Part shown: in pieces, positions 1,754-53,219 of the stretch
How positions within the stretch are numbered: the first letter of the stretch is position 1
Layout: each line of letters begins with the position of its first letter
NCBI GenBank assembly: GCA_902778855.1
Contig: CACYZM010000001.1
Coordinates: forward strand, 5,838-69,837
Direction: 5' to 3'
DNA: 64,000 nt
Source: an uncultured Bacteroidia bacterium
Lineage (GTDB): Bacteria > Bacteroidota > Bacteroidia > Bacteroidales > UBA932
Notes under the pieces: generated by a model
The model's input: the letters and a program-made list of their open reading frames with translations, nothing else
What the model was told of the DNA's origin: nothing
The model's database searches: none
Program-made: the position numbers and the translations under genes

Positions 1754-3718
1754 TTACAGTTTTACGGTAAAGGTTTTGGTTTCGGGCACCAGGCAGGTGT
1801 TGTTGTTGCAGCACTGGTACGTGACCGTGACTTTGGCTTCGCCTTCGCCTTGGCCCTGGATGGACTGGCGGAATTCGCCGGTACCGCGATAGACGGTCGT
1901 ACCGGAGGCGTCGAGCAGGCTGGCTTCGGGAAGGTAGAGCGGGCCGACCTTCTCATATCCGGCGGGGAGCTCGATCTCGACGGTCGTCACCACGAAAACC
2001 TCGTCGGCCGGCACCACGGCGTAGGTATGGTAGCCCGGATGGATCTTCTGGAAGACTACGATGTCCTTGCCTTTGTCGGTATTGACAGCCCTGGCCTGGA
2101 GATACACAGGGTTGCGGTCATCGGTCAGCGAGGCCGACGCATCATTCCCGCGACGGCGGGAATCCTTGCCCAGCATATAGGCCTCTTCCTCCTCGGCGAG
2201 GCGGACACGGTAGTCGTTGCCCGGCACGTTTTCAAAGGTATTGACCAGCCACAGATAGCCGCCGTTCTCGGTAAAGAAGAGTTTGTCGTGGTAACGGTTG
2301 TACCAGTCGCGCCATTCTTTCGCCGTTTCGAAGCGGCAGAGCGTGTAGCGTTTCAGGACGGTCTCGGCGATGTCCTTTTCCGGATCGTTCTTCTCGAGCA
2401 TCGAGATGCACTTGTCGAGGATGCGGATGTCGTTGTTCGGAATGCCCAGATAGCGGACTTCGTCGTCGATGGCCAGTTCGTAGGAACCATTGGGGCACCA
2501 GAACCAGCCGTAGTTCTTGTCATAGAAGTCCTGATACGCCTTCTCGTCAGTGCCGAACACGGCATAGAGGCCCTTGCCGCGGTCATTTTGCATCAGGAAT
2601 TCCCGGTAGGTGAGCATCTTCTGCTCGGGGAAGTTTTCGTAGATGGCCATATTGGGATCGACCTTCTCGCCACGCGCCTTCTGGTCTTTGATGACGGCCT
2701 TCAGACTGTCGACCATCCGGTTGAAATCCGCATTGGACTTGTTGTAGGCTTCCCACATCGAACGGCTCATCCGGTTGCGCTCCATCCCGATATGGTCGCG
2801 GGTGGAAACGCCGTCGTTGAATTTCCGGGCGATGGGATGCTGTCCGGCAAACTGCTTCATATAGACCACGGCATTGACGAAGAGGGCCTTGGCGGTCTCG
2901 GTCATATAGGTCGGCGAAGCCGAGAAGCCCCAGGTAAACCAGTTGGCGTGGCGGCCAAGGGCCACGGCGTCGATGCTCTTGGCGCATTTGCCGCCGCTGA
3001 TGACTTCGGCTTCCGGCGAATCGGTGTAGCCGCCCGGGCGGGAGACCATACCGATGCGGTAGTCGCGGTTCTGCTCGTAATTCATCGTCTGCATCCGGAA
3101 CATCTCGGTCTCGGCAGGCAGGGGCTCACCCATCATTTCCGCGATTTCAGCAGCTGCGGGGGGCGTGGGCTGCATCGAGGTTTCGATGGTGACTTTCACC
3201 GGGCCCTGGAAAATGGGATGCGAGGCATTCCAGCCGAGGGCCATGTCTTCCAGGCAGAGGCAGTACCAGTCGTTCTTCGTGCCGATGCGACGGCCCATCT
3301 CTTCCCCGGCCTCGGCAATGGTAATCACCGGGCGGCTGAAGTCGAGCGGGAAGTACTGCGGACGCGCATAACGGACCATTCGGCCGTGATCGTCGACGTC
3401 GCGGATCCCCGGCGCGATGGGCGCCGGCGTGCCGTCAAGGATGGTCACGTCGTAGTAGTCGGACATCGAATAGTGATAGTCCTTGGCGTCGATGACCTTG
3501 ACGGTCTTGAAATTCTTTTTGAGGAATTTCTCAAACGCCGCGGTGCGCTCCGCCGCACTCTTGGCGACGACGGCCGGGTCGGGTTTCTCCGCCAGGCCAA
3601 AGGTCTCGATTTCAGGCGAGCCGCCCACATAGAGCACGCTCACCGCCTGCTTTTTCTGGGCGTGGAGGCCCAGAAAACAGCAGAGCAGCAGGGAAAGGGT
3701 CAGAAAGAACCTTTTCAT
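1754..3718 (-). CDS. exported protein of unknown function with a C-terminal nDsbD-like (DsbD alpha / DsbC-type) redox domain
   Basis: Signal peptide MKRFFLTLSLLLCCFLGLHAQ. The last ~100 aa (IHPGYHTYAV...VTVTYQCCNNNTCLVPE) match the nDsbD pattern seen in the DsbD at 9400-11421 (VTVEWQACNDENCIPP). I recognise no motif in the first ~530 aa. Confidence 0.75.
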   Translation of the reverse strand: MKRFFLTLSLLLCCFLGLHAQKKQAVSVLYVGGSPEIETFGLAEKPDPAVVAKSAAERTAAFEKFLKKNFKTVKVIDAKDYHYSMSDYYDVTILDGTPAPIAPGIRDVDDHGRMVRYARPQYFPLDFSRPVITIAEAGEEMGRRIGTKNDWYCLCLEDMALGWNASHPIFQGPVKVTIETSMQPTPPAAAEIAEMMGEPLPAETEMFRMQTMNYEQNRDYRIGMVSRPGGYTDSPEAEVISGGKCAKSIDAVALGRHANWFTWGFSASPTYMTETAKALFVNAVVYMKQFAGQHPIARKFNDGVSTRDHIGMERNRMSRSMWEAYNKSNADFNRMVDSLKAVIKDQKARGEKVDPNMAIYENFPEQKMLTYREFLMQNDRGKGLYAVFGTDEKAYQDFYDKNYGWFWCPNGSYELAIDDEVRYLGIPNNDIRILDKCISMLEKNDPEKDIAETVLKRYTLCRFETAKEWRDWYNRYHDKLFFTENGGYLWLVNTFENVPGNDYRVRLAEEEEAYMLGKDSRRRGNDASASLTDDRNPVYLQARAVNTDKGKDIVVFQKIHPGYHTYAVVPADEVFVVTTVEIELPAGYEKVGPLYLPEASLLDASGTTVYRGTGEFRQSIQGQGEGEAKVTVTYQCCNNNTCLVPETKTFTVKL

Positions 3719-16816: not shown

Positions 16817-16938
16817 CTTTTGCGCTGCAACGGACGCACCTGATTTACAGTTGTTTATAGGAAGTGATCCCCCTCGGAATCAGAGGGATCAGGTTACATA
16901 AGTCACTGATTGACAAGTGTGTACATTGCAGCAAAAAG
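16817..16938. repeat. ~120-bp imperfect palindromic element (family 'CTGCAATGTA', copy 1) between thrA and asd
   Basis: The ends CTTTTGCGCTGCAA (16817-) and TACATTGCAGCAAAAAG (-16938) are inverted copies. The central hairpin GATCCCCCTC/GAGGGATC lies at 16866-16890. A second copy lies at 40457-40575. Confidence 0.55.
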
Positions 16939-37190: not shown

Positions 37191-37201
37191 ATGATGCTCC
37201 G

Positions 37202-37342
37202 GGGGTAGGTCCCCGGTTGTTATGGGATAGGTCCAATAAAAGAATCGGGATCTACCCCGTAATATGGTATCAGATGGCGATTTACGGGGTAGGTCTCGGG
37301 GGATTCATCCGACCTACCCCAAAAGATGGCGGGACCTACCCC
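37202..37342. repeat. two-fold symmetric array of six GGGGTAGGTC / GACCTACCCC boxes (REPIN-like inverted doublet)
   Basis: Boxes start at 37202(F), 37224(F, 1 mismatch), 37249(R, 1 mismatch), 37286(F), 37311(R) and 37333(R). Start-to-start spacing is 22-25-37-25-22. The left ~70 bp aligns to the reverse complement of the right ~70 bp. Confidence 0.65.
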
Positions 37343-37357
37343 GATTATCCCCGTCGA

Positions 37358-38203
37358 TCAGGGAATGGCAGTGCCGTGGAATTCGGTGGCGTGGGTAATG
37401 GCGGCCAGGGCAGCGAGATTGTCGGGCTTGACGCCGCAGCCGGGCATCACGATGAGGCGGCTGCCGGCGCGACGGACCAGAAGGGTGATCAGGCCGCGGC
37501 CGTCCCAGGCGTTCGGGGCCTGGCCGGAAGTGAGCAGGCGGGTGCAGCCGAGGGCGATGATCTGATCGAGGGCGATGAACGGGTCGGCCGTGCAGACGTC
37601 ATAAGCGCGGTGGAAAGTCACCGGCAGCGGGCTGGCGGCGGCGATCAGTCGGCGCATGGCCGCCCGGTCGATGGCGCCTTCCGGCGTCAAGGCGCCGACA
37701 ACGATCCCGGCCACACCGACCGATTTGCAATACCCGATATCCTCGATCATCTGTTGCAGATCGACTTCATCATAGACAAAATCTGCTGCGGAGAATCCGC
37801 CATCCCCAACCGGATCGGGGGTCTGGGGTTCCCGGTCAAGCCGGGAATGACGATCGGGGCGGATCAACACGTTGACGGGAATTGTCAGAGACGCAACGAC
37901 ATCGCGGATGAGGTCGCGGGGCGGCGTCACGCCGCCGACCGAAAGATCGACGCAGAGTTCGATGCGGCCCGCGCCGCGGGACTGGGCCGACCGGGCCTGT
38001 TCGAGGGTGGTGCAGCAGGTCTCGATGAAGAGAGATGCCCGGTCAGGCCGGGCATGACGGTCGTCGGGAATCGGCGACGGGGTGCCGCCGGAGCCAGATT
38101 CCAGGTCAAGCCGGGAATGACGCTCATCGGGGGCTGCCGACGGGTTATTTTCGTCATCTTTGGGATAGCGCTGGGCGAAGCCGGGGACGAGGGAGAAGGT
38201 CAT
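37358..38203 (-). CDS. cutC: CutC-family protein (copper homeostasis protein CutC) carrying three in-frame hairpin-repeat insertions
   Basis: Core motifs IETCC...GAGRIELC...GGVTP...IPVNVLIRP...TFHRAYD...RLLTSGQ...IMPGCGV match CutC. Extra segments ERHSRLDLES, DRHARPDRAS and DRHSRLDREP are encoded by the repeats. The ATG forms an ATGA overlap with the upstream stop. Confidence 0.8.
   Translation of the reverse strand: MTFSLVPGFAQRYPKDDENNPSAAPDERHSRLDLESGSGGTPSPIPDDRHARPDRASLFIETCCTTLEQARSAQSRGAGRIELCVDLSVGGVTPPRDLIRDVVASLTIPVNVLIRPDRHSRLDREPQTPDPVGDGGFSAADFVYDEVDLQQMIEDIGYCKSVGVAGIVVGALTPEGAIDRAAMRRLIAAASPLPVTFHRAYDVCTADPFIALDQIIALGCTRLLTSGQAPNAWDGRGLITLLVRRAGSRLIVMPGCGVKPDNLAALAAITHATEFHGTAIP
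37829..37859. repeat. hairpin repeat copy 1 (TTCCCGG-TCAAG-CCGGGAA + TGACGATCGGGG) inside cutC
   Basis: A perfect 7-bp stem with a 5-nt loop, plus a conserved 3' tail. It is translated on the minus strand as PDRHSRLDRE, between the conserved LIRP and DFVY segments. Confidence 0.7.
38035..38068. repeat. hairpin repeat copy 2 (ATGCCCGG-TCAGG-CCGGGCAT + GACGGTCGTCGGG) inside the cutC 5' region
   Basis: 8-bp stem with the same architecture and tail as copy 1. Translated as DDRHARPDRAS. Confidence 0.65.
38098..38133. repeat. hairpin repeat copy 3 (ATTCCAGG-TCAAG-CCGGGAAT + GACGCTCATCGGGGG) inside the cutC 5' region
   Basis: Same element with one stem mismatch. Translated as DERHSRLDLES, in the same frame as the other two copies. 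Confidence 0.65.
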
Positions 38204-40563
38204 AGCTGGGGGATGACGCGTTTGAGGTCTTCGGCCAGGGAGGTGTTGTAGCCTTGGGAGAAGTAGACGATGCGGCCGAAGCTGTCGCAGATCGTGACGA
38301 CCGGCAGTTGGCGGGATTCGCTTTTACAGCCGGCGCAGAGCATCTCCAGGATCGAGCCGTCTGGGTCATCGATCGGGATGAGTTTCGACAGGCGACCCAA
38401 AGATGCGTCGGTCGAAGAGGCCATCGACCGGCCGACGGCGGGCCCGGCCATCAGCAGCGGCCTGCCCCATTCTTCCAGTTGGGGAATGATGGAACCCAGT
38501 TGGCGGACGCAGTGGTTGGTCGGCTCGTCGCGGTCGCCCAGGACGGCCAGCAGATAATAGCCGCGGCCGGTCTGGGGCAGGAAGCGGTCGGCATCCATCG
38601 TGCCCAGCACCGTGATCTTGTCGTCGGCGACGCGCATCACCAGCGGCACTTCCGTGTCGGCATCGGCCGCTACCGGGAAGAATTCCGCGTGCGAGAGCAC
38701 GCTGCCGTCGGCCAGACGGGTTCCGGAGGTCAGCATATAGTAGCCGGTATCGACCTTCAGCGGGAAGACCTGCTTCCAGGAGTTATGGTCGGAATCTTCG
38801 TCGATGGTCAGCAATTTCGCCGTTCCGTCTTCCACCTTGGCCAAAGTGAAATGATGGTAGTACTCCGGATCGCCGCGGCCGTCGAGCGCCACGGAGACGG
38901 TGCCCTGCGCCCGGGGCGCCAGCTGCGCGCCGCCGGTCAGGGCGTCGAGCTCCGCCTCGAGGCCCATGGCCCGGCAGAGCGCGACATAGAAGATGTCGCG
39001 GTTGTGGGCATCGGCTTTCCGGCTGGTCCACACGTCAATGGGGGCCATCCGGAGTTCCTGGGGATTGCGTTCCGTGTCGAGTTCGATATGCTTTTCCACC
39101 CAGTCGGCCACTTCCTCGCGGGAAGTGAGCGACAGGCCGGCGCCCAGCTCGGCGAAATAAGGTTTGAGCGGCTCGAGCTCGACCCGCGGGCAATCGCGCA
39201 GCGGATTGAACGCGCCGTCGATGTGGGCGTAGGCGTCTTCCAGCACGTCGGCGGTCACGTCACCCATATCTTTGGCCGAGAGCGAACGCAGCAGGGCGTG
39301 GGCATTGGCGTCGTCGTGCGCCGCCAGGAAAGCGTCGATCACCGCATGGTTCCCTTTCGGACGGGTCTCGCGGATGATGTCTTCCTGTTTGAAGCGCTCC
39401 GCATTGCGGGCCACTTCCTCGGGAGACGCGCCGGACGGAAGCGGATTCTCGGCGGGCGGCACGATATCCAGGTCGAGCGAGAAGCGCTCGCCGACCTGAT
39501 GATCGAGCGTCACGGACACTGCTTCGCCGTCGATCACGGCCAGGCCGAAGCGGTCGCCCTTCGAGGCCCAGGCCACCATATCGCCGCAGCCCATATCGAG
39601 GGCCGCCTGGCCCTTGCGGTCGGTCTGATAGGTAGCCACCGTATAGTATTCACCGTAGTTATAGATCTTGAACTCCACCCGGGCGTCGGCCACCGGCTTG
39701 CCGGCCGCATCCACGACCGTCACGACGCTCCGCCGCGCCGGCACGTAACCCCGGATGACGTTGATTTCCGTATAGCAGGGCGTCCGTTCGATGACATCCT
39801 CGTCGCCGTGATAGTCGCCGAAAACCTTCGTATGGAGGATCAGCGCCCGCGACACCGGCGCCGTAAACCAGGCCATGTTGAGCCGGGGCTCCGGCTCACA
39901 GGCTCCCATAAACTGCCACTTGCCGTCGACGAAGACCTCCACCCAGGCGTGGTTGTCGTCGGTGTGGGCCCAGCGCGGCGTATAGACCTGCCGGGCGGGA
40001 ATGCCCGCGGCGCGCAGCGCGGCCACGGCCAGCGTGGACTCCTCGCCGCAGCGCCCTACGCCGCGCTGAATCGTCTGCAGCGGCGACGACGTACGGCCGT
40101 CGGAAGGCTGGTAAGTAGCCATTTCGTGACACCAGTGGTTGATCTCCAGGGCCGCCTGCTCCAGCGTCATGCCCGCCACGCGGGCGCAGAGCGAATCGGC
40201 ATACAGCGTCCGAAAATCGTCGAGCGGTTCATTGTTCACCCGCAGCGGCAGCACGAAGTGCCGGAACTCCCGTTCGGGAACGTCCCAGCCCATCCGCTCG
40301 CGCACTTCGAGCGTCTTTTCGACATTGGCCTGCCAGTAGGCCAACGGCTGCGCCGCAAAATCAGGATGCGGCATATTGGCATACAGGAAATTCACATAGG
40401 CGTCCGCATCGCTCCGCGGCTCGCTGCCGCAGGCTGTCAGTATCAACGCCAGCAATAAAGCCTGCAATGTAAGCTTCAGAAAATGAGGCAGAAACGCAAG
40501 TTGATCCCCTCTCCCGGAGCGGGGATCATTTTTAATAAACGATTGATTATCAGATGTGTACAT
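38200..40563 (-). CDS. transglutaminase-like (Cys-protease / PNGase superfamily) lipoprotein with additional C-terminal domains
   Basis: Core GVGRCGEESTLAVAALRAAGIPARQVY...DNHAWVEVFVDGKWQF and lipobox LILTAC. The start is uncertain: the ATG at 40563 lies inside a repeat element, and 45 aa precede the lipobox Cys. Confidence 0.75.
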   Translation of the reverse strand: MYTSDNQSFIKNDPRSGRGDQLAFLPHFLKLTLQALLLALILTACGSEPRSDADAYVNFLYANMPHPDFAAQPLAYWQANVEKTLEVRERMGWDVPEREFRHFVLPLRVNNEPLDDFRTLYADSLCARVAGMTLEQAALEINHWCHEMATYQPSDGRTSSPLQTIQRGVGRCGEESTLAVAALRAAGIPARQVYTPRWAHTDDNHAWVEVFVDGKWQFMGACEPEPRLNMAWFTAPVSRALILHTKVFGDYHGDEDVIERTPCYTEINVIRGYVPARRSVVTVVDAAGKPVADARVEFKIYNYGEYYTVATYQTDRKGQAALDMGCGDMVAWASKGDRFGLAVIDGEAVSVTLDHQVGERFSLDLDIVPPAENPLPSGASPEEVARNAERFKQEDIIRETRPKGNHAVIDAFLAAHDDANAHALLRSLSAKDMGDVTADVLEDAYAHIDGAFNPLRDCPRVELEPLKPYFAELGAGLSLTSREEVADWVEKHIELDTERNPQELRMAPIDVWTSRKADAHNRDIFYVALCRAMGLEAELDALTGGAQLAPRAQGTVSVALDGRGDPEYYHHFTLAKVEDGTAKLLTIDEDSDHNSWKQVFPLKVDTGYYMLTSGTRLADGSVLSHAEFFPVAADADTEVPLVMRVADDKITVLGTMDADRFLPQTGRGYYLLAVLGDRDEPTNHCVRQLGSIIPQLEEWGRPLLMAGPAVGRSMASSTDASLGRLSKLIPIDDPDGSILEMLCAGCKSESRQLPVVTICDSFGRIVYFSQGYNTSLAEDLKRVIPQL

Positions 40564-40575
40564 TGCAGCGAAAAA
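40457..40575. repeat. ~120-bp imperfect palindromic element (family 'CTGCAATGTA', copy 2)
   Basis: Left end AAAGCCTGCAATGTA (40458-40471), right end TGTACATTGCAGCGAAAAA (40557-40575), central hairpin GATCCCC/GGGGATC (40503-40527). It shares the 15-mer TGTGTACATTGCAGC with 16918-16932. Confidence 0.5.
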
Positions 40576-43512
40576 TTATAAGACTGTGACTTCGTCGACA
40601 AACAGATGGGCTTCGCCGCCGGCGCCCTGGTGCCAGTCGGGCAGGACGCCGAAATTCTTGGCCACCACCCGCACGTAGCGGGCGTCGGCGCGGAGGTCGA
40701 GGGGGAACTCGAAGATCTGGACCTTCGGGTCCTTCGGATCGACTGCGTGCTTCATCTGGCCCTGCTTCACGAATTTCTTGCCGTCGGTCGACGTGTAGTA
40801 TTCCACCCACTGCGGCATCAGGATCCAGGCGCGGCTGTCCTGCAGGAAGCCGGCCGCGATGCGGGTGATGCGCCGAATCTTGCCCAGGTCGATCGTCGCG
40901 TCGAAATCGCAGCCCTGATAGCCCTGCCAGCCGCCCAGGCGGAAGTTGGTATTGCCGCGCACACCGTCGACGATGGCATTGTCGCCGCCGGCGTTGTAGG
41001 TCGGCTCATATTTATTGGCCAGTTTGACCTTGAAAGTATTGTCAAATTTCCGGAGCGTGGTGGTCGTGATGAAGCTGTGGGTGGCGCCGGTTTCGTCGGT
41101 GCAGTAGGCCTCGATGGTCGAGGTACGGCTGATTGTGAACGGGCGCTGGTAGCGGATCCAGTCGGGCTGGGCGCCGCCCTTCTCGGACAGCACGCGGTAC
41201 CAGATGCGGTAGCGCTTGTCAGCCGCCCCGAGGGCGACAGTCGTCGAGCCGGAGAAGGTCTGCGACGGCACGTCGAACCAGGGGTTCTCGACGATGGTGT
41301 GCGGCACGGCGGCCACGGGCCGGTCGTCCGGCTTGCTGCCGAAGCGCGGGTTGGGCTTGCCGTCCATACCCAGGATGAAGGTATGGCCCTGTTCGATGTC
41401 GGAGAAGCGGAGGTACGACTTGCTGTACGGCACGCCGTCGCGCATCACGTGGTTGATGTAGGGATTCTTCTGGCTGGTGCGCGGAGCGCGGACGGTGAAG
41501 TCCTTGCCGTTCTCGAGGTGGATCACGGCGTTGCGGAACAGCGGCGTGCCGAAGACCAGCACGTCGGAACCGGGCGTCACGGGATAGAAGCCGAGGGCGC
41601 TCATCACGTACCAGGCCGACATCTGCCCGCAGTCCTCGTTGCCGCAGAGGCCGTCGGGCCGGGAAGTGAAGAGGTCGTCCATAATGCCGCGCAGCACGCG
41701 TTGCGCCTTCCAGGGAGCGCCAGCATAGGCGTAGAGATAGGCGATGTGGTGGCTGGGCTCATTGCCCTGGGCGTACTGCCCCACCATACCCGTCATATCG
41801 GCCACCTTCCAGGCGCCGCCGGTGTCGCTCGACGAGGTGAACAGTTCATCGAGCCAGTCGATCATCGAGTCGTCGCCACCGCTGACGCCGATCAGGCCGT
41901 TCACATCGTGCTGCACGTGGAAGGAGTACTGCCAGGAGTTGGCCTCGGTGTAGTGGACGTTGACGTCGGTGGGATTGAAGGGCGAGAGCCAGATGCCGTT
42001 GATGCGCGGGCGCATGAAGCCCGTGGTGGGATCGTAGACATTGCGCCAGTACTGGGCGCGTTTCTGGTACTGCGCTTCGGTCTGGCGGTCGCCGGCGAAA
42101 TGGGCCACCTGGGAGATGCACCAGTCGTCGAGGGCGTATTCCAGGGTCTTCGACACGGATTCGTGCTCGCGCTCGGCGAGCACCAGGCCGTTGTCGCGGT
42201 ACACGTCGATGCCGAATTCGGCCCGGTTCGAGGTGGCCACCAGCGCCTTGAGGGCCTTCTTCACGTCGAAGTCGTCGATGCCCTTGGCCAGGGCGTCGGC
42301 GATCATCGGGGCGGAGCTGTAGCCGATCATGCAGTTGGTCTCATAGCCGCAGAGCTCCCAGACGGGGAGCTTGCCGCCTTCGTCGTAGATCGAGATCATC
42401 GACTTGATGAAGTCGACGGTCCGCTTCCGCTCGATGATGTTGAACAGCGGATGCAGGGTCCGGTAGGTGTCCCAGAGGGAGAAGATGTGATAGCGGTCGA
42501 ATCCCACAGCCTTGTGGACGCGCCGGTCCATACCCAGGTACATCCCGTCGCTGTCGGAGTAGAGGCTCGGCGCGATGGCCGCGTGGTAGAGCGCCGTGTA
42601 GAAGACCTTCATTGCTTCGGCGTCGCCCTCCACCTCGATTTTCGAGAGGAAATCGTTCCAGGCGACGCGGGTGGACTGGCGCAGCAGGTCGAACGAGAAC
42701 AGGCCGTTCTGTTTCCAGCCGTCCTCCGATTTGAGGTTGGCCTTGGCGCCTTCTTCGGAGACCGAAGAGATGGCGGCCTTGACCACCAGCTCGCGGGCGC
42801 GCGACTGGCCGGCCGAACGGTCGAAGCTCAGCAGGGCCGTGGCGCCGTGCGGCGACTGGGCGATGGTGATGCCCGTGATCGGGCGGGAGAATTCCATATA
42901 AAAGTAGCACATCTGGCCGTCCGCCCAGGAGCGGGACGACCGGAAGCCCTGGATGGCGTTTTCACCGGCCAGTTCGATCTTGGAATCCAGCACGCGGTCG
43001 CGCGGGCCCAGGTCGACGACCAGCTGCGGGGTCGCATCCTTGGGATAGGTATAGCGATGGGCGCCGATACGGCGGCCGACCGTCAGCTCCGCCTCCACGT
43101 CCCAGCGGTCGAGATGCACGCTGTAGTAGCCGGCCGAGGCGTGCTCGTTGCGGTGCGAGAAGGGCGACTGGTAGTTCTCTTCCTTCACCAGGCCTTCGTA
43201 GCCCACCACCGGCATGATGCGGATGTCGCACAGGTCGGCGCAGCCGGTGCCGCTCAGGTGGGTGTGCGAGAAACCCTTGATCAGGGAGTCGCTGTAATGG
43301 TAACCCGAGCAGCCGTCCCAATTGTCCTCGCGGGTATCGGGACTGAGCTGGATCATACCGAAGGGATAGGTCGCGCCGGGGAACGTATGCCCGTGGAAGT
43401 CGGTTCCCACCATCGGATTGACCATATCGGCATATTTTGTGCGGAGTACGCCCGCGTCGAGCAGGCCGGGGATGCCCGCCAGCAAGACAAAGAGGATCAG
43501 AAGCTTTTTCAT
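40576..43512 (-). CDS. GH92-family alpha-mannosidase with C-terminal F5/8 type C (discoidin) domain
   Basis: MVNPMVGTDFHGHTFPGATYPFGMIQLSPDT is a GH92 hallmark, and a discoidin-like domain lies in the last ~140 aa. The ATG at 43512 (MKKLLILFVLLAG) is preferred; an alternative ATG is at 43530. Confidence 0.9.
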   Translation of the reverse strand: MKKLLILFVLLAGIPGLLDAGVLRTKYADMVNPMVGTDFHGHTFPGATYPFGMIQLSPDTREDNWDGCSGYHYSDSLIKGFSHTHLSGTGCADLCDIRIMPVVGYEGLVKEENYQSPFSHRNEHASAGYYSVHLDRWDVEAELTVGRRIGAHRYTYPKDATPQLVVDLGPRDRVLDSKIELAGENAIQGFRSSRSWADGQMCYFYMEFSRPITGITIAQSPHGATALLSFDRSAGQSRARELVVKAAISSVSEEGAKANLKSEDGWKQNGLFSFDLLRQSTRVAWNDFLSKIEVEGDAEAMKVFYTALYHAAIAPSLYSDSDGMYLGMDRRVHKAVGFDRYHIFSLWDTYRTLHPLFNIIERKRTVDFIKSMISIYDEGGKLPVWELCGYETNCMIGYSSAPMIADALAKGIDDFDVKKALKALVATSNRAEFGIDVYRDNGLVLAEREHESVSKTLEYALDDWCISQVAHFAGDRQTEAQYQKRAQYWRNVYDPTTGFMRPRINGIWLSPFNPTDVNVHYTEANSWQYSFHVQHDVNGLIGVSGGDDSMIDWLDELFTSSSDTGGAWKVADMTGMVGQYAQGNEPSHHIAYLYAYAGAPWKAQRVLRGIMDDLFTSRPDGLCGNEDCGQMSAWYVMSALGFYPVTPGSDVLVFGTPLFRNAVIHLENGKDFTVRAPRTSQKNPYINHVMRDGVPYSKSYLRFSDIEQGHTFILGMDGKPNPRFGSKPDDRPVAAVPHTIVENPWFDVPSQTFSGSTTVALGAADKRYRIWYRVLSEKGGAQPDWIRYQRPFTISRTSTIEAYCTDETGATHSFITTTTLRKFDNTFKVKLANKYEPTYNAGGDNAIVDGVRGNTNFRLGGWQGYQGCDFDATIDLGKIRRITRIAAGFLQDSRAWILMPQWVEYYTSTDGKKFVKQGQMKHAVDPKDPKVQIFEFPLDLRADARYVRVVAKNFGVLPDWHQGAGGEAHLFVDEVTVL

Positions 43513-43565
43513 AATTGTAAAAATAGGCATTTTTTATTATTTTTACCGAATAATTGTTTGGAATC

Positions 43566-47297: not shown

Positions 47298-47347
47298 ACC
47301 GCACGGTTCGCTGATCAGCGCCCTCGGCGCCGCCGCTCGACGGCCCA

Positions 47348-47457
47348 GCTGGAGACTAACCAACTGATTAGCAATACTTTTCGCGAAATCGCCCTCCCCC
47401 TGCAAGGGGAGGGCGATTTCTCGTTATCGATTGATAGTCTGGAAGTTAGCCTCCACC
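47348..47457. repeat. ~110-bp long-hairpin REP-like element (family 'GCTGGAG...GGGGAGGGCGA', copy C), adjacent to the Y1 transposase gene
   Basis: Perfect 15-bp central stem GAAATCGCCCTCCCC / GGGGAGGGCGATTTC (47385-47420) and outer inverted ends GCTGGAGACTAAC / GTTAGCCTCCACC. Confidence 0.7.
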
Positions 47458-47485
47458 GGTCAATGGGTCGCGTTGACCGAACGGG

Positions 47486-48421
47486 CTACCGGGAAGGCTT
47501 GAGACGGAGATATTTCTCCAACTGACGACGGCTGGCTCCGGTGCGGAGGCCCAGGGGCTCCAGCAGCTCGCGGCGCTCGGCTTCCGACATACGGATAAGG
47601 TCGTCGGTGCTTTGAATCCGATGGGATTGCAGCAGGAACATCGTCATCTGGCTATAGATGAGGTCGGATCGGCCGACGAATTCTTCCCGAATCGCATATT
47701 CGCTTCCCGTTGTGGTGTTGATGGCCGTCACCAGATCGGCATAATTTCCGAAACGGTAGAACAAGTCCTGATAGTCAACGCAGTTGTAGATGCTGATGAT
47801 CAAATCATAAAGCTGCTTTCTCTCCTGCGGGGTCAATGGAGCGGTTATCCGTTTAAGTTTCGCATAGTTGAGCGGAAGTTCCTCCTTCCGGGAACTCTTG
47901 ACTTCTTCGACGGCCCGGCGCATCGGCGCCCGGGCCTTGTCGAGCCTGACCGGCGATGAAAAAGGGAAACGGCTGTCGGCATACGCCAGGATATTCCAGG
48001 GATACTGTTCTGCCCGCTTGCAGATGAGACGCTCGACGGGATTGTTGTAGAGATAGGCAATGGCGCTGCGCTGCTTTTTGTCGTCGACTTTCGACGCCAC
48101 GCCGTATTTCGCTGTAAAGAGGGGTCCGCGCAAGCCATACCATTTGTTGTAAGTGTTCGCAAACCAACTGGTATAGAGACTTACGAACTGATCCATTTCC
48201 TCTTTGCTCCTGACCTCGACCAGGACGTGAATATGGTCGACCATCAGGCAGATGCCGAGAATCCGGATGTTGTAACGCCGGGCGGCCGTGGCAATGAACG
48301 TAAAGAAGACCACGCAGTCCCGCACTGAGTAAAAAATCAGGAAACCATTTACGGTTTTTTGACAGATGTGCTGAATGGCACCGTCGGAAAAAAACAATCG
48401 TCCCTTCATACCTCGCTGCAT
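47486..48421 (-). CDS. HUH/Y1 single-strand DNA transposase family protein (IS200/RAYT-like) with C-terminal extension
   Basis: HUH motif LMVDHIHVLVEV and Tyr motif AIAYLYNNPVERL. The start is ATG 48421 or 48409, just downstream of a TATCTTTG box; the track ORF extends to 48517. Confidence 0.75.
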   Translation of the reverse strand: MQRGMKGRLFFSDGAIQHICQKTVNGFLIFYSVRDCVVFFTFIATAARRYNIRILGICLMVDHIHVLVEVRSKEEMDQFVSLYTSWFANTYNKWYGLRGPLFTAKYGVASKVDDKKQRSAIAYLYNNPVERLICKRAEQYPWNILAYADSRFPFSSPVRLDKARAPMRRAVEEVKSSRKEELPLNYAKLKRITAPLTPQERKQLYDLIISIYNCVDYQDLFYRFGNYADLVTAINTTTGSEYAIREEFVGRSDLIYSQMTMFLLQSHRIQSTDDLIRMSEAERRELLEPLGLRTGASRRQLEKYLRLKPSR

Positions 48422-48432
48422 TTGGTTACGTA

Positions 48433-48440
48433 CAAAGATA
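48433..48440 (-). promoter_or_regulatory. Bacteroidota -7 promoter box (TATCTTTG) for the Y1 transposase gene
   Basis: The minus strand reads TATCTTTG, 11 nt upstream of ATG 48421 and 23 nt upstream of ATG 48409. Confidence 0.45.
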
Positions 48441-48545
48441 CGATCGGGAACCGCCGTTTTCCAAATTCTTTTTGTATGCCGACGATATCCGCGCAACATT
48501 TTCCCGCGATTCTGCATCTATAGAACAGATTGCTCCCGTTGACCT

Positions 48546-49238
48546 ATGAAAAGAACCTGTTATCTTCAAGCTTTTCTCCTGCTGGCCATTTCCTTCGCGG
48601 CCGTATCCTGCGATTGGCTGGCTCCTACGCCCGATCCGGAACCGGAAATGAAAATCGACCTCGCTTCACCCCTGAATGTCAGTGCGGAAGGCGGAAAGGT
48701 TTCCGCACAAATCGAATCGAATTGTCCCTGGCAGGCTCAGGCCTTTCCTGGCAATGGCTTCTATTTCATCACGATGGTCACCACCAAGGGAGAATCGGGC
48801 ACGTCCACCCTTGATTTTGTGGTCAAACCGAACCTGCTGGCAATACAGAAGATCGGTTCGGTCCAGGTGACAGCCTCGAATGAGATAGGGCAGAGGACGT
48901 TCGAAATCGTGGTTACGCAATCCGGCGCCGAGCCTTTTGCGGAACTCCTCGACTGGCAGGATCCTCTTGTGCCCTCCGAAGGCGGAACGGTTTCCTTGAG
49001 AATCCTGAGCAACACGGCGGCTTACCTTAACTGCCGCGATCAGGGCATTAGGATAACGATTGAAGATGCCCCGGGCGGTTTCAGCGGCGAGCAGCCCGTA
49101 ACCAGCAAGGTAACCATCACTGTCCCCGCCAATCCGAAACCGGAAGCCCGTTCCTTTAATCTTGAGCTGGTTTGCTTTACCAAGCCCAAAATGGTCACTA
49201 TGGGCACCTTCGTCCTCCGTCAGGCCGCTGGAGCTTAA
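48546..49238 (+). CDS. BACON-domain lipoprotein
   Basis: Lipobox FAAVSC and two BACON-like repeats (LNVSAEGGKVSAQIESNCPWQAQ...; LVPSEGGTVSLRILSN...). The last codons (AAGA-stop) lie inside REP copy A. Confidence 0.7.
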   Translation: MKRTCYLQAFLLLAISFAAVSCDWLAPTPDPEPEMKIDLASPLNVSAEGGKVSAQIESNCPWQAQAFPGNGFYFITMVTTKGESGTSTLDFVVKPNLLAIQKIGSVQVTASNEIGQRTFEIVVTQSGAEPFAELLDWQDPLVPSEGGTVSLRILSNTAAYLNCRDQGIRITIEDAPGGFSGEQPVTSKVTITVPANPKPEARSFNLELVCFTKPKMVTMGTFVLRQAAGA

Positions 49239-49335
49239 GTCGCTGATCCATAGCCAATAATGCAAAATCGCTCTACCCTGATAGGGGAGGGCGATTCTAC
49301 GGAAAGTGCTGATAATCAATGCTTTAAACTCCAGC
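49227..49335. repeat. REP-like long-hairpin element, copy A (degenerate left arm)
   Basis: GCTGGAGCTTAAG...AATCGCTCTACCC-TGATA-GGGGAGGGCGATT...TTTAAACTCCAGC. It aligns along its length to copy B (53088-53196). Confidence 0.65.
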
Positions 49336-49366
49336 CGCCAATCAGGGCGGCCGGAGAGCAGCCGCC

Positions 49367-53078: not shown

Positions 53079-53087
53079 CAACATCGC

Positions 53088-53196
53088 GCTGGAGCTTAAG
53101 CTCCTGATACACAGCTGCTAACGCAAAGTCGCCCTCCCCAAACAAGGGAGGGCGACTTTGCGTAAGATGCTGCTGATCAGCGCGATAGCCTCCAGC
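53088..53196. repeat. REP-like long-hairpin element, copy B
   Basis: Perfect 17-bp central stem CGCAAAGTCGCCCTCCC / GGGAGGGCGACTTTGCG (53122-53162) and outer ends GCTGGAGCTTAAG / GATAGCCTCCAGC. Confidence 0.7.
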
Positions 53197-53219
53197 GGCC
53201 TCGAGCTTCCAGCGGCCGG

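Follow-up and report, generated by a model that had tools for sequence, protein, structure and literature searches.

Does a transposase-like gene that lies among long DNA hairpins in a rumen Bacteroidales genome belong to an ordinary insertion sequence (IS), or does it encode a resident enzyme with a hairpin family of its own? The question is raised by a 64,000-nt stretch of DNA (the whole stretch analysed, referred to below as the window) from an uncultured bacterium of the UBA932 lineage of Bacteroidales (contig CACYZM010000001.1, positions 5,838 to 69,837), which encodes a protein of the HUH/Y1 type and carries ~110-nt palindromes beside its gene. An earlier interpretation of the same DNA, made without database searches (the sequence-only reading), had proposed a system of the REPIN-RAYT kind, in which a REP-associated tyrosine transposase (RAYT) is accompanied by repetitive extragenic palindromes (REPs). 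Among bacterial mobile DNA that persists for long and is passed on vertically, REP/RAYT systems are the principal example, and work on them concerns almost only Proteobacteria. This proposal is supported by the enrichment of hairpins at the gene, the covariation of hairpin type with enzyme clade, the presence of solo hairpins and a protein fold that is closest to a RAYT. We consider it probable that the locus represents a REPtron-like system, composed of a RAYT-like Y1 endonuclease/transposase acting on single-stranded DNA (ssDNA) and a cognate family of ~110-nt imperfect hairpins.

The Y1 gene is located on the reverse strand at 47486..48409. Its open reading frame (ORF) extends over 47486..48517, and the start codon at 48409 (protein start MKGR), which is common to 31 homologs, gives a protein of 307 aa; an alternative ATG is present at 48421. 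Start and motifs are conserved in 32 homologs. About residues 1–145 form the catalytic domain, whose HUH and tyrosine motifs read DHIHVLV and AIAYLYNNPVE; the sequence-only reading had recognized them as DHIHVLV and AIAYLYNNPV. In 32 sequences with 42–91% identity, D62, H63, H65, Y123, N127, P128, V129 and E130 were invariant, and the segment YLYNNP was almost completely conserved, L124 and N126 being shared by at least 90% of the sequences. The ratio of nonsynonymous to synonymous substitution rates (dN/dS) was 0.07–0.19 in comparisons with orthologs. The Y1 gene is under purifying selection with its catalytic residues intact.

Profile searches placed the catalytic domain in the Pfam family Y1_Tnp (PF01797; 34 bits versus a gathering score of 23, residues 41–124). 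The top NCBIfam model was REP_Tyr_transpos (NF047646; 42.5 bits, residues 13–142), whereas the NCBIfam IS200 model (NF033573) matched only the HUH region with 17.7 bits, below its cut-off of 55. A phmmer search of the protein against PDB sequences returned nothing relevant, and a profile search of the same sequences matched IS200/IS605 TnpAs weakly, around the HUH motif. Because these sequence searches were weak, the assignment to RAYTs is based on the NCBIfam ranking, the tyrosine motif and the fold. An AlphaFold2 model built on the 32 homologs (pLDDT 90.9, pTM 0.89) has the β-sheet/helix fold of TnpA, and its best Foldseek match among solved structures was 4ER8 (E value 1e-4, 140 columns, TM score 0.63), the E. 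coli TnpA_REP (RAYT, YafM) bound to a REP hairpin. It was followed by transposases of ISDra2, IS200 and IS608 (2XM3, 2F4F and 2A6M among the hits); across these hits and 4ER8, TM scores (target) were 0.55–0.67.

The gene also carries its own promoter box. The sequence TATCTTTG at 48433..48440 (reverse strand), read from the letters as a −7 box of the Bacteroidetes type, lies 11 nt before the ATG at 48421 and 23 nt before that at 48409, in agreement with the 11–23 nt given by the sequence-only reading. Of 74 related loci, 34 have a TAnnTTTG motif in the 70 nt that precede the start, mostly 19–27 nt from the ATG; none of 74 intragenic control stretches has one.

What accompanies this gene is a set of hairpins of nearly constant length. 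The first type A element (c1, 47346..47458), a 113-nt imperfect palindrome, begins 27 nt past the Y1 stop codon in the intergenic region where the 3′ ends of rplI and of the Y1 gene face each other. Its central stem of 15 bp is perfect and its ends are inverted (GCTGGAG/CTCCACC), as had been noticed from the sequence, and it folds as ssDNA with −28 kcal/mol (z = −6.2); the orthologous copy in L002 (related loci are designated by L numbers) is 75% identical. Two further copies had been reported within 6 kb, and both were recovered by nhmmer with E values of 1e-30 to 1e-33; pairwise identity among c1–c3 is about 58–75%. The second type A copy (c2, 49225..49336; −18.9 kcal/mol, z = −3.1) forms the upstream flank of the Y1 cassette; a lipoprotein-like ORF of 230 aa (48546–49238) stands between it and the gene. 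In L002, which contains a 92% identical ortholog of the Y1 protein, the equivalent of c2 precedes the Y1 start by ~110 nt, and no ORF intervenes. The third type A copy (c3, 53086..53197; −41.9 kcal/mol, z = −10.3) is solo, located between the convergent 3′ ends of a GT2 glycosyltransferase gene and an M49 peptidase gene, and is also present at the same site in L002. As a separate observation, a 23% identical relative of the lipoprotein-like ORF is encoded just outside the downstream hairpin in L003 (2122–2808, reverse strand). The ORF beside the element in L004, by contrast, is not homologous to this lipoprotein-like ORF.

Two additional copies, both solo, belong to a different hairpin type, type C. 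One (16822..16932; iterated nhmmer E value 3e-16) has a type A-like architecture with the foot GCTGCAA..TTGCAGC and the stem GTGATCCCC, and is of the same type as elements that flank 41–43% identical paralogs in L029, L033, L034, L070 and L071. The other (40459..40570; E value 1e-13) lies 5 nt past the stop codon of an ORF at 40576..43530 (reverse strand). The window thus holds five copies of two types in 64 kb. Since its sole Y1 gene, at 47486–48409, belongs to clade A and no type C Y1 gene is present there, both type C elements are solo and at least 16 kb away from any cognate gene. All five copies are within 50 nt of a stop codon, and three of the five lie between convergent genes. A scan of the whole window against Rfam revealed no family at the gathering score, so that the hairpins do not correspond to any RNA described there, and a simple terminator scan did not flag c1–c3, which for this reason are not claimed to be terminators.

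To what extent are these hairpins a defined family? A gapless palindrome scanner caught only two of the five window copies and was replaced by an nhmmer profile built from the three type A copies, which was iterated over 80 loci and the window and converged at 141 elements. An almost gapless alignment of 114 columns could be made for 110 elements, all 110–113 nt long. The foot reads [C/G][C/G/T]-T-G-[G/C]..., with the complement at the opposite end, and its TG and CA are invariant or nearly so (T5, G6, C110 and A111). The arms carry CTGAT/ATCAG boxes, each arm holding a CTG-N5-CAG box, and the centre is occupied by a G+C-rich stem-loop between an A-run on the 5′ side and a T-run on the 3′ side. 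When the alignment was read as one long hairpin, 70.8% of cells paired, compared with 36–40% when the partners were slid by 1–3 columns. The covariation score was 0.435 versus 0.195 in shuffled alignments, and none of 500 shuffles reached the observed value. The terminal stem (columns 3–9 with 107–113) and the central stem (41–53 with 62–75) were mostly more than 90% paired (about 70–100% per pair); at most stem pairs, double changes occurred in 20–64 sequences, and two terminal-stem pairs never varied. Both stems are maintained by compensatory substitutions. Pairing and covariation together indicate that what is conserved is the folded single strand. With a length of 110–113 nt and z scores of −3 to −10, the elements have the form of the ~100-nt long imperfect hairpin that is expected of a REPIN. 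Half-length copies were absent among the 141 nhmmer hits, no search aimed at REP singlets having been made. Because the orientation of flanking elements relative to the gene was inconsistent, we treated the element as effectively symmetric. The 5–9 nt beyond the feet of all element copies are T-rich on the 5′ side (~45% T) and A-rich on the 3′ side (~42% A); these flanks extend the palindrome, or may reflect a T(n)A(n) target.

The distribution of these elements around Y1 genes was highly uneven. An element was present within 300 nt upstream of the Y1 gene in 42 of 75 loci and within 300 nt downstream in 37 of 79. The distances were also restricted: 32 elements ended 40–100 nt before the start codon (roughly 60 nt) and 24 began 0–40 nt after the stop codon. 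Element density was 6.7–7.6 per kb at the gene ends, 0.06–0.09 at 1–5 kb and 0.01–0.02 at 5–10 kb, so that the hairpins expected near the gene by the sequence-only reading are enriched there ~100-fold over nearby sequence. Across the family, two complete elements of a single type enclose the Y1 gene; such hairpins bracket it in about 45 related Bacteroidales loci.

The hairpin type varies with the clade of the enzyme. Type A (foot GCTGGAG...CTCCAGC, stem T[CT][GA]CCCTCCCC) flanks Y1 genes whose products are 67–100% identical to that of the window. Type B (foot CGTGGCA...TGCCACG, stem ATCGGTTGCG, ATCGTGTGCG or CCGCTTGCG) flanks the 44–47% clade, and type C (foot GCGCTGCAACGGACGCA...TGCGTACATTGCAGCG, stem GTTGATCCCC or GTCCTCCCC) flanks the 41–43% clade. 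The corresponding foot tetranucleotides are CTGG in type A, CTGC in type C and GTGG, an instance of the canonical GT[AG]G REP tag, in type B; further types were observed, some with TTGG feet and others around L014, L064 and L079. The two flanks of one gene were 68% identical on average, compared with 46% between loci, and Y1 identity was correlated with flank identity (Spearman 0.44; none of 999 Mantel permutations was as high). In the metagenome-assembled genomes (MAGs) RGIG3317, UBA3290 and Tb.RUG.407, types A, B and C were each found beside the 67%, 44–47% and 41–43% paralogs, respectively. Co-resident paralogs each have their own hairpin type; therefore, the correlation between type and clade is not a genome effect.

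Solo hairpins of these types are likewise found in intergenic regions at the 3′ ends of genes. A search of metagenome contigs with the type A pattern, blind to Y1 genes, yielded 44 stretches with 20 confirmed elements, of which 7 abutted a Y1 gene and 13 did not, i.e., about two solo copies per flanking copy. Around several of the 13 (L092, L104 and L123), 2–9 kb on either side are devoid of Y1 genes, and an element in L120 was 5.8 kb from a Y1 gene. The dispersed repeats of the sequence-only reading were thus borne out as copies away from Y1 genes, but not as a near-identical swarm: whereas REPINs number tens to hundreds of nearly identical copies, the window contains five, and the family is low-copy and diverged. 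Within genomes the elements were 66% identical versus 61% between genomes, and since this difference is small we make no claim of recent amplification of type A within a genome. The hairpin family is old, low-copy and structure-conserving rather than the product of a recent burst.

Comparison of strains for gain or loss of elements, which had also been suggested, gave a divided result. At one orthologous intergenic site, the element is lacking in L066 and present in L074 and L077, but the hairpin involved is of a distant type; empty sites of type A were sought among the loci, and the orthologous sites were all occupied. The empty site in L066 reads CATCTTTTTAAAG, and at the same site L075 (5990–6260) has tandem arrays of ~21-nt units, TTGTCATTCTGAGCTTCTCTG and GTATGTTCAGGATGACAGA, that are partly complementary to each other. 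A different kind of event was detected in L124, where two hairpin-Y1-hairpin units 6.8 kb apart are 86% identical over 1.18 kb and their proteins 91% identical (dN/dS 0.10). The homology starts and stops at the outer feet of the elements, indicating that the complete hairpin-gene-hairpin unit can be copied. An inverted repeat of ~22 nt, GTCTTTCATCAGCAGGCTGGC / GCCAGCCTGCTGATGAAAGAC (2410–2435 and 3647–3672), encloses one of the two L124 units, which seems to sit in the loop of another palindrome.

We identified more than 200 full-length Y1 homologs (41–91% identical) in metagenomes. In a collection with one genome per species, 166 stretches encoded relatives, and almost all of these belonged to MAGs of Bacteroidales from rumen or gut, among them Candidatus Cryptobacteroides and ‘Alistipes sp. 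CAG:435’. Many MAGs contained 2–4 paralogs that were only 40–67% identical to each other, such as RGIG3317 (L004, L014, L028 and L070), UBA3290 (L007, L020 and L071) and Tb.RUG.407 (L005, L024 and L034). Given these sister MAGs and the second hairpin type in the window, the view that the Y1 gene is single-copy is probably wrong for the genome as a whole. Identical Y1 copies were not found in any MAG examined, and the loci lie inside contigs of 100–470 kb, which multi-copy insertion sequences normally break. Such contigs, the divergence of the paralogs and the low dN/dS are at odds with an ordinary multi-copy IS200, the outcome that the sequence-only reading had named as its own refutation. The neighbourhood of the window gene (pepD, rpsF-rpsR-rplI, folP, tmk, a membrane protein, the GT2 glycosyltransferase and the M49 peptidase) recurs around the 92%, 83% and 67% orthologs in L002, L003, L004 and L005, but not around the 67% homologs L007–L009. 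This synteny, the long contigs, the diverged paralogs and the dN/dS values favour mostly vertical descent with a single copy per lineage in each genome, whereas the two 86% identical units of L124 and the other location of L007–L009 speak against it. The only public Y1 copy with 100% identity lies on a 2.7-kb contig (L001, JAEEGN010000146.1) that was binned as a ‘Selenomonadaceae’ MAG; because the 92% ortholog is of Bacteroidales origin, as are all the neighbouring genes, this contig is probably misbinned, and we set its label aside.

A feature that sets this family apart is the C-terminal domain of the enzyme (coding part 47486..47974, reverse strand). The extension had been estimated at ~150 aa and measures about 160 aa (residues ~146–307); it is all-helical and ends with a helix-turn-helix (HTH)-like motif, TGASxRQIxKYLHL. 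Against Pfam, the domain yielded nothing apart from weak hits of HTH_23, in 2 of 17 members; searches against PDB sequences gave no match, and Foldseek searches against PDB folds gave nothing better than E = 3. When 1.84 billion cluster representatives (clusters at 50% identity) were searched, the domain was present in 454 clusters, 390 of them at E ≤ 1e-10. The best 150 of the 454 were all proteins of ~300–320 aa with the domain at ~146–305, or fragments of such proteins; among these 150 hits, the domain is thus confined to this Y1 architecture. It is a family-specific domain without known relative.

These observations suggest how a REPtron-like system of this kind might work. The enzyme would recognize the folded hairpin on ssDNA, e.g., on the lagging-strand template, reading the clade-specific foot [C/G/T]TG[G/C]...[G/C]CA[G/A/C], in which TG/CA is invariant, together with the clade-specific central stem. 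It might then cleave and rejoin DNA at the feet by means of Tyr123 and an HUH-bound metal, whereby hairpins would be excised and reinserted or otherwise maintained. The C-terminal helical domain could add binding of DNA or of a host factor, and the complete hairpin-gene-hairpin unit would occasionally be copied as a whole.

Several points weigh against this interpretation. The link between protein and hairpins is a computational one, and should be read as a predicted pairing. The protein scores 42.5 bits against REP_Tyr_transpos, whose equivalog cut-off is 80 bits. The foot of the hairpins at this locus is CTGG and not GT[AG]G. In the consensus G-x-L-F-x-x-P-Y-G of the family (32 sequences), L-F stands where E. 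coli TnpA_REP has W94/Q95, a segment that contacts the guide sequence (PMC6006769). The type A copies are few and diverged (55–78% identical overall), and at orthologous positions in the window and L002 they are 67–75% identical, a divergence above that of the coding DNA around them; we therefore do not claim that type A has transposed recently, and the only clean presence/absence case concerns a distant and shorter hairpin type. Finally, in a clade from human-gut MAGs with 38–40% identity to the protein of the window (L042, L046, L047, L051, L055, L056, L058, L059, L060 and L065), no strong hairpin was found within 300 nt of either gene end, and these genes may represent orphan enzymes or be associated with elements of a very different kind.

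How else might the locus be explained? If the unit were an autonomous IS of the IS200/IS605 superfamily, its two 110-nt hairpins would be left and right ends, the gene itself would be mobile rather than domesticated, and the solo hairpins would be one-ended products or relics resembling miniature inverted-repeat transposable elements. Such a scheme could accommodate the two L124 units, whose homology ends exactly at the outer feet, the different contexts of 67% homologs (L007–L009 versus L004 and L005), the presence of several paralogs per genome, and the weak profile matches of IS200/IS605 TnpAs around the HUH motif. We regard it as unlikely, given that no identical or nearly identical copies were seen (those in L124 differ in 14% of nucleotides), that the loci are internal to contigs which a multi-copy IS would break, and that orthologs with 67–92% Y1 identity keep one neighbourhood (rplI/folP) across genomes. 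In addition, the ends are complete palindromic elements like the solos instead of distinct left and right ends, the IS200 model is far from its cut-off (17.7 versus 55 bits), and the tyrosine motif is YxxxNP rather than Y[IV]ENQ. A quite different explanation is that the hairpins are host elements, such as bidirectional terminators or stabilizers of mRNA 3′ ends, beside which the Y1 gene merely lies or inserts. The position of all window copies close to stop codons and of three between convergent genes, the G+C-rich central stem with its 5′ A-run and 3′ T-run, and the persistence of copies at orthologous sites, where sequence drifts and pairing is kept, are what such elements might show. Termination would leave unexplained the conserved outer foot, the fixed length of 110–113 nt and the conserved internal CTGAT/ATCAG boxes, as well as the own type of both flanks for each paralog within one genome and the fact that elements are enriched ~100-fold at well-defined spacings from the gene; moreover, c1–c3 escaped the simple terminator scan and no Rfam family matched. 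We consider this explanation highly improbable.

The remaining alternative concerns the function of the enzyme. The Y1 protein might be a domesticated hairpin-specific recombinase whose main role is to invert or permute hairpin-bounded gene blocks and not to propagate the elements. The window and L002 are colinear except for the lipoprotein-like ORF, whereas the neighbourhood (rpsF-rpsR-rplI, folP-tmk-membrane protein-GT2 and M49) is arranged differently in L003, L004 and L005: compared with L002, the Y1 cassette of L003 has the reverse orientation, with respect to rplI, between its two elements, and the folP-GT2 block and the M49 gene have been inverted or have changed place in L004 and L005. 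All breakpoints that could be placed coincide with elements, and elements are denser in the 5 kb around the gene. However, this comparison covers five genomes only, recombination between repeats without Y1 would equally put breakpoints at elements, the two orientations were not seen within one population, and no Y1 enzyme is known to invert double-stranded DNA. Element-bounded rearrangement is thus a lead and not a demonstration, and we find a main role in rearrangement very improbable. The related idea that the added C-terminal helical/HTH domain makes this distinct Y1 lineage a resident hairpin-specific recombinase, with the hairpins as its recombination sites, is also quite improbable in our view. 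If true, it would amount to a Y1-based site-specific rearrangement system in Bacteroidales that rearranges its own cassette as well.

Two other repeats were noticed in the window. The intergenic region 37195–37345 contains dense direct and inverted copies of GGGTAGGTC/GACCTACCC, for which a repeat finder gives 61-nt arms that are 72% complementary; the sequence is unrelated to the Y1 hairpin family. Within the ORF 37358..38203 (reverse strand), three copies of a 27-nt unit, TTCCCGGTCAAGCCGGGAATGACG, which forms a hairpin with a 7-bp stem, are present at 37829–38125. The spacings between them (207 and 63 nt) are each divisible by three, and the copies could represent in-frame insertion of a repeat in the gene.

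The family, a probable REPtron-like system with about 450 clusters at 50% identity, has so far been encountered almost exclusively in MAGs of Bacteroidales from rumen and gut. With at least three enzyme/hairpin pairs residing together in a genome, it provides a compact test case, in which specificity appears to be encoded in a short foot and a covarying stem, and it brings a protein domain of a new kind. It may be used to ask how Y1 enzymes tell their own hairpins apart and whether local rearrangements of the genome are driven by hairpins. In annotation, the label of an ordinary IS200 transposase should be avoided for these genes, and Bacteroidales MAGs should have the hairpins masked or annotated.

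How does the system compare with those already described? With the REPtrons of E. coli (YafM) and of the Pseudomonas RAYT groups it shares an HUH/Y1 domain with YxxxNP (the E. coli enzyme being the best structural match), a gene bracketed by imperfect palindromes of which copies also occur alone in intergenic 3′ regions, a separate repeat family for each paralog, purifying selection, partly conserved synteny and an apparently low gene copy number. It differs in protein length (307 aa including the ~160-aa helical C-terminal domain, versus about 150–165 aa), in having L-F for W-Q and, at this locus, a CTGG foot for GTAG, in a single 110-nt hairpin of fixed length (REP singlets are not evidenced, and no search was aimed at them), and in copies that are few and 55–78% identical; the protein is also below the NCBIfam equivalog cut-off. 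The phylum itself is not the novelty, since REPtron-like arrangements in Bacteroidetes have already been reported for subclasses 2.4 and 2.6 (Quentin et al. 2018, PMC6006769). In that classification, class 2 TnpA_Y1 (RAYT-like) proteins have the tyrosine signature Yxx[x]NP and class 1 (IS200) proteins Y[IV]ENQ (PMC6006769); the YLYNNP of the present family fits the pattern Y-x-x-x-N-P of class 2.

Within class 2, subclass 2.4 (Bertels group 4) occurs in Cyanobacteria and Bacteroidetes with ‘long’ and ‘double foot’ REPs, and is characterized by NH[IFV]H, WQ, YIxNNP and a median length of 194 aa (PMC6006769). The family described here is similar in its phylum, in YLYNNP, which resembles YIxNNP, and in its long double-foot hairpins, type B having exactly GTGG...CCAC. 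Judged by description, it falls outside this subclass: it has DHIH, lacks WQ and is 307 aa long, with a C-terminal domain that is absent from subclass 2.4 as described, and no REP insertions were seen inside the gene. A long C-terminal extension, here with a probable HTH end, is shared with subclasses 2.1 and 2.3 (Bac_DnaA_C/HTH). These subclasses with large C-terminal domains were reported to be without REP-like sequences (PMC6006769), unlike the hairpin-associated family analysed here, and their motifs are NHVH/NHYH and YIELNP/YVDLNP. The IS200/IS605 elements (IS608 and ISDra2) have the same fold and chemistry, hairpin recognition at element ends is a property of theirs, and the duplication of a complete unit in one related contig (L124) is another resemblance. 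What distinguishes the present family from them is that it has no multi-copy identical set and no tnpB, that its tyrosine motif is of the class 2 type, and that its ends are complete palindromic elements like the solos, not distinct left and right ends. A full-text literature search found no paper on this Y1 family, and the combination of DHIH, L-F, YLYNNP and 307 aa appears, as far as descriptions can be compared, to fit none of the eleven subclasses of Quentin et al. The new features are a RAYT-like core joined to a 160-aa domain without known relative in a family with cognate hairpins, the set of motifs, a double-foot hairpin that has a fixed length of 110 nt and whose foot and stem are clade-specific, and the coexistence of three or more such enzyme/hairpin pairs per genome.

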